A stretch of DNA of 61,879 nt, filler included, from Bonamia ostreae (Eukaryota): NCBI GenBank assembly GCA_040357525.1. It is 15 parts of 15 records of this genome, joined end to end, with 100 filler letters (N's around TTAATTAATTAA, not from the genome) between each part and the next. Parts side by side here need not be neighbours in the genome. Positions count along the whole stretch, not along the records: positions 49,682 to 53,689 come from JBDODL010000378.1; 14 more parts are not named here. One strand, 5' to 3'. Both the position numbers and the translations under genes were made by a program. The notes below the pieces were generated by a model. The model was not told the DNA's origin. It searched no databases and was given only the letters and a program-made list of their open reading frames with translations. Positions 52,128 to 52,576 of this stretch are shown here, one piece after another. The stretch's first letter is position 1, and the number at the start of each line of letters is the position of its first letter.

Positions 52128-52576
52128 ATGCAATTGTTTCATTTATTTAGCAATCAGATTCTTCAACAACATAAACGGACAGAGCATCGCTTTACCCGTT
52201 TCGCCTTTCGAAAAGCTTCACTCTGTCAAAAACAGACTTTCGAAAATAATCTGTTATCTTTCACCACTTTTTAGCTGTTCCCGTTTCACAAATGCTTCTC
52301 TCATCCAGATCTAGTCTATTCGAAGAAAATTCGACTTTGCTCGAAAACAACCTCGCAGACGGCAATTCTCTGGACATTTCGCTCAGACTGAGAGGAGGCG
52401 CAATCGAACCGAATCTCATAGTTTTAGCCGAAAAGTACAACGTCAACAAAATGGTCTGTCGAAAATGCTATGCTCGTTTGCCCCCGCGCGCTACAAATTG
52501 CCGCAAAAAGAAGTGCGGACATTCCAATAAATTGCGTCCGAAGAAGAAGATGGTAATAAGCAATAAGAAAAAATAA
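52128..52576 (+). CDS. RPL40: Fusion of a highly diverged ubiquitin-like domain with ribosomal protein eL40
   Basis: Introns 52136-52157 and 52253-52274 (22 nt each) give a 76-aa Ubl ending LRLRGG, then [50 protein letters not shown]. Confidence 0.95.

Follow-up and report, generated by a model that had tools for sequence, protein, structure and literature searches.

Few proteins are as conserved as ubiquitin. Cases in which its loci do not all encode an identical ubiquitin nonetheless exist, as a review records (PMC8122580), and the copy fused to the ribosomal protein S27a is highly diverged in Caenorhabditis and various protists (Jones & Candido 1993; Catic & Ploegh 2005; both cited in Dalhuisen et al. 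2023, PMC10457151), sharing in Plasmodium falciparum 24/76 residues with the parasite's own ubiquitin (PMC10457151). Diverged ubiquitin fused to L40 was previously found only in Giardia, and arose twice within Plasmodium, in the lineages Vivax and Ovale, with 11-23 differences over the 76 sites (PMC10457151). In another ribosomal fusion, FUBI-eS30, the ubiquitin-like (Ubl) leader must be cleaved off for subunit maturation (PMC8354635). Here we describe a ubiquitin-eL40 (Ub-eL40; UBA52/Ubi1-type) gene of the oyster parasite Bonamia ostreae, located at 52128-52576 of a 61.9-kb window (the whole stretch of DNA that was analysed), whose ubiquitin half appears to have escaped the constraints that hold ubiquitin invariant. 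In our preferred explanation, to which we assign a probability of roughly 0.7, this half is no longer ubiquitin and serves as a cleavable, fold-only cis-chaperone leader for eL40.

Reading the region and rebuilding its splicing by script yielded two 22-nt introns, both GT..AG (Table 1), as the earlier note on this DNA had proposed. The spliced coding sequence spans 405 nt including the stop and encodes a 134-residue product that is identical throughout to a database protein (P0001), the hypothetical protein MHBO_001499 of B. ostreae, which bears the UniRef name "Ubiquitin-like domain-containing protein"; the annotation behind this record, on a contig of 4,008 bases, is the same gene model as the rebuilt one. 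Without splicing, the frame opened by the ATG reaches a stop after 48 codons. The published annotation of B. ostreae was produced with funannotate trained with transcriptome reads (PMC11069148), and is not necessarily the source of the P0001 record.

Our ubiquitin reference was the canonical Toxoplasma Ub-eL40 (P0025), residues 1-76; the leader aligned to it without gaps and was identical at 24/76 positions (52/76 differ), exactly the count in the earlier note. Six of the ubiquitin lysines are replaced (K6N, K11Q, K29R, K33I, K48S and K63D) and only K27 is kept, while two extra lysines, not mentioned in that note, occupy the non-canonical positions 22 and 32. Further substitutions include L8I, R42L, I44S, H68D and V70S. 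The attributes of a chain-forming ubiquitin, namely seven lysines and the L8/I44/V70 patch, are thus absent: K27 stands alone, and the patch reads I, S and S. Residues 71-76, by contrast with these positions, are LRLRGG as in ubiquitin, followed by Ala.

The eL40 part is 41/52 identical to that of Toxoplasma, matches the Pfam family PF01020 over profile positions 1-50 of 50 (E = 1.7e-30), and, as part of the exon-3 product, is matched by eL40 chains of the PDB (E = 3e-32). Its four zinc-binding cysteines (C96, C99, C110 and C115) are present, and are invariant in an alignment, hereafter A2, that sets MHBO_001499 beside 29 further full-length Ub-eL40 proteins, of which 8 are diverged and 21 canonical or almost so. 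The divergence is specific to the leader domain, at 24/76 there vs 41/52 in eL40. The alignment to P0025 bears out what had been read from the sequence earlier: the replaced lysines with K27 as the only one kept, the change of I44 and V70 to Ser, and the good conservation of LRLRGG and eL40. With a zinc-cysteine eL40 C-terminus behind a predicted 76-residue beta-grasp that ends in Gly-Gly directly before eL40, the gene shows these two features of the Ub-eL40 type. Its eL40 tail, MVISNKKK (52553-52573), exceeds the 29 other eL40 tails in A2 by about 3-6 residues.

The leader is, on these sequence comparisons, homologous to ubiquitin beyond chance. A phmmer search of PDB sequences aligned its residues 1-76 end to end with ubiquitin 1-76 (E = 7e-7, to a 76-residue chain), and the best 60 PDB rows were all ubiquitin, ubiquitin fusions or engineered ubiquitin variants. 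It is nevertheless not ubiquitin itself, considering the identity of 24/76 and a score of 23.3 bits against the Pfam ubiquitin family PF00240, below the curated cut-off of 25.4.

These properties make the locus a ribosomal fusion of diverged ubiquitin, in which a leader of ubiquitin length (24/76, E = 7e-7) precedes a conserved ribosomal part (41/52). It resembles the UbS27a (Ub-eS31) fusions in joining a very diverged 76-residue leader to a conserved ribosomal protein, down to the same 24/76 as in P. falciparum, but those fusions have the small-subunit protein eS31 as partner, whereas the Bonamia partner is eL40 of the large subunit, on which ubiquitin divergence has been reported far more rarely. 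The UbL40 genes of Giardia lamblia and of the Vivax and Ovale lineages of Plasmodium are of the same gene type, with a conserved L40 and a ubiquitin part no longer held by conservation (PMC10457151), as in Bonamia; the Plasmodium leaders differ from ubiquitin at 11-23/76 sites, whereas the Bonamia leader differs at 52/76, retains a single one of the seven lysines and carries Ser at both 44 and 70. FUBI-eS30 (FAU, of holozoans) likewise carries, ahead of a ribosomal protein, a non-ubiquitin Ubl leader with Gly-Gly at its end, but its partner is eS30 and not eL40, so that the Bonamia gene is not a member of FAU and the likeness is one of working mode only. FUBI is, moreover, an old and separate Ubl family, whereas the Bonamia leader looks like a recently drifted ubiquitin, its best 60 PDB matches being of ubiquitin type and not FUBI. 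Ubiquitin/L40 fusion chains of microsporidia (e.g., 7qep_P0) matched the Bonamia exon-3 product weakly, at 27-57 bits vs about 110 for canonical chains; the microsporidian eL40 seems to have diverged too, unlike the conserved eL40 of Bonamia. The background assumed in the earlier note, with a near-invariant ubiquitin in Ub-eL40 and FUBI-eS30 as the classic diverged case, was too narrow, given the S27a and the Giardia and Plasmodium L40 divergence, and the wide occurrence of similar leaders in protists, which it had named as a point that would speak against its claim, turns out to be partly the case: such leaders are common on S27a and occur on L40 in Giardia and two Plasmodium lineages (PMC10457151).

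We defined conserved hydrophobic positions as those at which I, L, V, F and M together make up at least 90% of the residues in the 29 other leaders of A2 (n = 21); the Bonamia leader is hydrophobic at 20/21 of these, the sole loss being I44S, at an exposed patch residue, and at 8/55 of the remaining positions (hypergeometric P = 5e-11). Outside the hydrophobic set and before the tail, it carries the majority residue at only 9/51 positions. Across the 30 leaders of A2, G75 and G76 are the only invariant residues. The gene shows no sign of decay, with an intact open reading frame (ORF) and similar G+C content at third codon positions (GC3) in both halves (leader, 0.487; eL40, 0.517). As judged from the sequence, this is a pattern of selection for the fold, the length and the tail, and not for ubiquitin's interaction surfaces.

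Structure prediction pointed the same way. An AlphaFold2 model from the single sequence had a mean predicted local distance difference test (pLDDT) score of 54.6, too weak to stand alone, yet with its strands and helix in ubiquitin order; with A2 as input, the leader reached pLDDT 85-92, again with strands and helix ordered as in ubiquitin. Comparison of the A2-based model with 1ubq by Foldseek gave a template modelling (TM) score of 0.92 and a root-mean-square deviation of 1.5 A over 76 columns, so that the leader is modelled as a beta-grasp, a point on which the earlier note had looked to structure prediction. The Atlas's own model scored TM 0.88-0.97 against ubiquitin domains; the Atlas feature search, whose best score of 0.85 lies under the 0.9 level, provided a lead only.

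We thus favor a model in which the leader retains a beta-grasp fold over its 76 residues and acts in cis as a chaperone, which would aid the synthesis and solubility of eL40, a very basic protein that binds zinc. A deubiquitinase recognising the unchanged LRLRGG would then cut after Gly76 and free eL40 for the 60S subunit. The freed leader would probably stay out of conjugation, because it has lost R42, the I44/H68/V70 surface and all but one of the seven lysines used for chain formation, and working ubiquitin would then derive from other genes. Were it still activated, such a ubiquitin, poor in lysines and freed at the level of a ribosomal protein, would be expected to poison chain building, and this would favor loss of the E1/receptor contact surface once drift had begun. 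There is precedent for such a mode of action: in yeast, the ubiquitin moiety is required for productive eL40 expression, its removal lowering eL40 production; SUMO partly substitutes for it; and uncleaved precursors are lethal when they supply all of the eL40, entering 60S particles that are excluded from translation (PMC6721733). In addition, the diverged S27a ubiquitin of Giardia retains the ubiquitin structure, and its authors proposed a chaperone-only role for it (PMC10457151). Of the roles suggested in the earlier note, that of a FUBI-like leader, cleavable or chaperoning and no longer working as ubiquitin, fits best, as the fold skeleton, LRLRGG and eL40 are retained, in contrast to the I44 patch and the lysines. 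Its other suggestion, a new non-chain-forming modifier, gained no support.

A pattern in which the core and tail are kept and the surface is free would equally be predicted if the leader were drifting neutrally and had no positive role, its fold being retained only because deubiquitinases need it in their substrate and because an unfolded leader would be harmful. The finding that yeast eL40 made without ubiquitin still forms functional 60S subunits, at low levels, accords with this idea (PMC6721733). A roleless leader could, however, simply be lost, yet the exact length of 76 residues has been kept, and less eL40 is made in yeast once the moiety is removed (PMC6721733); we therefore consider neutral drift unlikely.

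The intact tail raises a different alternative, in which the leader, once cut from eL40, would be activated via LRLRGG and serve as a new ubiquitin-like modifier, either a mono-modifier or a chain terminator. The whole LRLRGG including R72 is kept, where the other diverged L40 leaders examined often keep just GG; the predicted fold is preserved, and three lysines are left (K22, K27 and K32). Residues R42, I44, H68 and V70 of ubiquitin are contacts for E1 and most ubiquitin receptors, however, and have become L, S, D and S in Bonamia, and the need for deubiquitinase cleavage suffices to explain retention of the tail. Nor did a stand-alone or tandem relative of the leader emerge in the collections searched: a word-indexed search with residues 1-76 returned six candidates and recovered only MHBO_001499 itself, and none of 98 candidates passed when longer proteins were searched for the leader. 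A modifier role is accordingly very improbable in our estimate. We give as little credence to the broader proposal that the freed leader, equimolar with eL40, is a lineage-specific modifier or acts on the ubiquitin system as a regulator and is not an inert by-product, for example a lysine-poor cap accepted by the parasite's E1/E2 via LRLRGG, or a deubiquitinase decoy.

Several points weigh against the cis-chaperone reading. The high-confidence A2-based model leans on ubiquitins that are mostly canonical, and the single sequence gave the low pLDDT noted above. The collections searched yielded no orthologue of the leader on which a dN/dS estimate of selection could be based. The retention of R72 and of the full LRLRGG may allow some conjugation, as R72 and the tail also matter for E1 recognition. 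RNA support for the two introns and for expression was not obtained from the four runs checked of the 24 listed (X5-X8): X7 gave nothing, and X5, X6 and X8 gave short contigs only, none across an intron and with no joints, which is uninformative either way. Finally, a second, canonical Ub-eL40 gene may lie elsewhere in the genome, as the search covered the 61.9-kb window, and the source of ubiquitin is known from published transcript annotations only (PMC9329632).

In the run X6, which we guess to be RNA, contigs of 31-95 letters at a word depth of about 9,000-25,000 were found only at 52355-52435, over the Ubl/eL40 junction, and two of these very short contigs also matched the opposite strand in a hairpin-like manner. 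The same run gave a 389-letter contig at depth 102 over the upstream positions 51800-52019.

The possible existence of another copy leads to a reading in which the gene described here is a second copy that is diverging, or a paralogue in decay, with weak or no expression, and a canonical Ub-eL40 elsewhere supplies both eL40 and ubiquitin. A local tblastn search found no other ubiquitin or eL40 coding sequence in the window, a span that is not the whole genome, and the published assembly is fragmentary, with an N50 of 1,417 bp and 65.9% of the conserved gene set (PMC11069148, Table 1); the lack of RNA support from the runs checked also suits a silent copy. A decaying gene would sit poorly with an intact ORF and two intact splice sites, with an eL40 part that is 41/52 identical and has all four zinc-binding cysteines, with a hydrophobic skeleton kept at 20/21 positions, and with GC3 values (0.49/0.52) well above the window's G+C content of 0.27-0.36. 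One Bonamia-named protein appeared among the best 120 of 1,629 eL40 matches, which is weak evidence against a second copy, as a canonical copy could rank lower or sit in another species' cluster. Taken together, we regard a decaying second copy as quite improbable. As to the supply of ubiquitin, the 30 most expressed B. ostreae transcripts (PMC9329632, Table 2) include a pair, 315 and 310 nt long, that carry the annotation "Ubiquitin" and have "cellular organisms" as their lowest common ancestor. By that table annotation alone, they fit a canonical ubiquitin made from other genes. Within the window, residues 1-42 of canonical ubiquitin gave a weak tblastn match at 26965-27087 (+) (30% identity, E = 0.41), inside an ORF at 26812-27477, which may represent a ubiquitin-like domain or chance.

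To place the Bonamia leader among others, we collected 53 full-length leaders from database proteins, a sample that is rich in odd sequences and is no census. Dispersed divergence (at most 49/76 identical to ubiquitin) was seen in 9/53, Bonamia included, while 11 of 20 low-identity leaders were set aside as likely gene-model artefacts, in which an unrelated N-terminal half is joined to a canonical C-terminal half. The diverged group comprises leaders from the mite Tetranychus urticae (P0007; 37/76 identical), an ENA-derived relative (37/76), the blastogregarine Siedleckia nematoides (P0070; 35/76) and the chytrid Synchytrium microbalum (P0102; 46/76), as well as further sequences at 28/76 and 45/76 and a shortened leader of 71 residues (remaining identifiers of the group: P0256, P0019, P0062 and P0236). 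Like the Bonamia leader, these precede a conserved eL40, end in GG and carry changes across the whole domain, but they are less diverged, at 28-46/76 identical vs 24/76, which makes Bonamia the most diverged L40 leader in the sample examined. Among the 8 diverged leaders in A2, R42 is kept in seven and a hydrophobic residue at position 44 in seven, whereas Bonamia has lost both. The Bonamia leader has more residues in common with canonical ubiquitin (24) than with any of the diverged leaders (22 at most). An eL40-only search of 50%-identity representatives omitted MHBO_001499 itself, indicating that moderately diverged leaders can hide in canonical clusters. Its best match was an unnamed protein of 138 residues (P0121) made of two tandem eL40-like units and having no ubiquitin leader. 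The excerpts consulted of the literature on such fusions contain no mention of the diverged mite, blastogregarine and chytrid L40 leaders.

The small size of the two introns is in keeping with the rest of the window. In a survey of 43 junctions of abutting ORFs, each of at least 70 codons, a single possible intron was found at 16/43 junctions; 10 of these 16 were 20-28 nt long, and three were exactly 22 nt (examples in Table 1). Most candidates start with GTT, are A+T-rich and end in AAG, TAG or CAG. Tiny GT..AG introns thus seem usual in this window, and the two 22-nt introns of the Ub-eL40 gene fit the tiny-intron pattern of the genome. In a first survey, which took all GT..AG segments flanked by open frames, counts were not above those of control dinucleotides. 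The genome paper, in the text available to us, mentions "canonical introns" and gives no lengths there (PMC11069148). The sole tRNA found in the window is a tRNA-Ile with anticodon TAT at 43110-43182 (+).

Table 1. Parts of the Bonamia ostreae Ub-eL40 gene and candidate tiny introns elsewhere in the window.
Feature	Position	Strand	Remarks
Exon 1	52128-52135	+	ATG CAA TT: Met1, Gln2 and first two bases of Leu3; product identical to P0001
Intron 1 (22 nt)	52136-52157	+	GT..AG; 5' GTTTCA, 3' ATCAG; removal restores ubiquitin-like N-terminus
Exon 2	52158-52252	+	Leader codons 3 (last base) to 35 (first base)
Intron 2 (22 nt)	52253-52274	+	GT..AG; 5' GTTATC, 3' TTTAG
Exon 3, leader portion	52275-52399	+	Residues 35-76; gap-free alignment to ubiquitin 38-76
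LRLRGG codons	52382-52399	+	Within exon 3
Exon 3, eL40 portion	52400-52576	+	58 residues including C-terminal MVISNKKK; PF01020 match
Stop codon TAA	52574-52576	+	End of exon 3
Tiny intron candidate	10634-10655	+	GT..AG at ORF junction
Tiny intron candidate	12196-12215	+	GT..AG at ORF junction
Tiny intron candidate	22519-22539	+	GT..AG at ORF junction
Tiny intron candidate	3511-3536	+	GT..AG at ORF junction
Tiny intron candidate	55286-55310	+	GT..AG at ORF junction
Tiny intron candidate	15187-15208	-	GT..AG at ORF junction
Tiny intron candidate	24385-24406	-	GT..AG at ORF junction
Tiny intron candidate	43879-43901	-	GT..AG at ORF junction

The phenomenon of a drifted ubiquitin in a ribosomal fusion is already known, and the Bonamia gene is an unusually extreme new case of it. 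In the titles and abstract openings of the matches listed for the Bonamia genome and for divergent ubiquitin or L40, the gene is undescribed and no case from Rhizaria or Ascetosporea appears. A 2023 Plasmodium study asks whether escapes of the L40 gene are commoner than realised (PMC10457151). The Bonamia gene is far more extreme than the Plasmodium cases and comes from a different supergroup, the Rhizaria, with its eL40 conserved; the mite, blastogregarine and chytrid leaders suggest that L40 escapes are indeed more widespread than realised. Escaped ribosomal-fusion copies of this kind separate the features of ubiquitin that serve the fusion partner (fold, length and Gly-Gly tail) from those that serve signalling (the lysines and the I44 patch). 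For B. ostreae, a notifiable parasite of oysters, it follows that one of the genes that usually encode ubiquitin probably gives no working ubiquitin.
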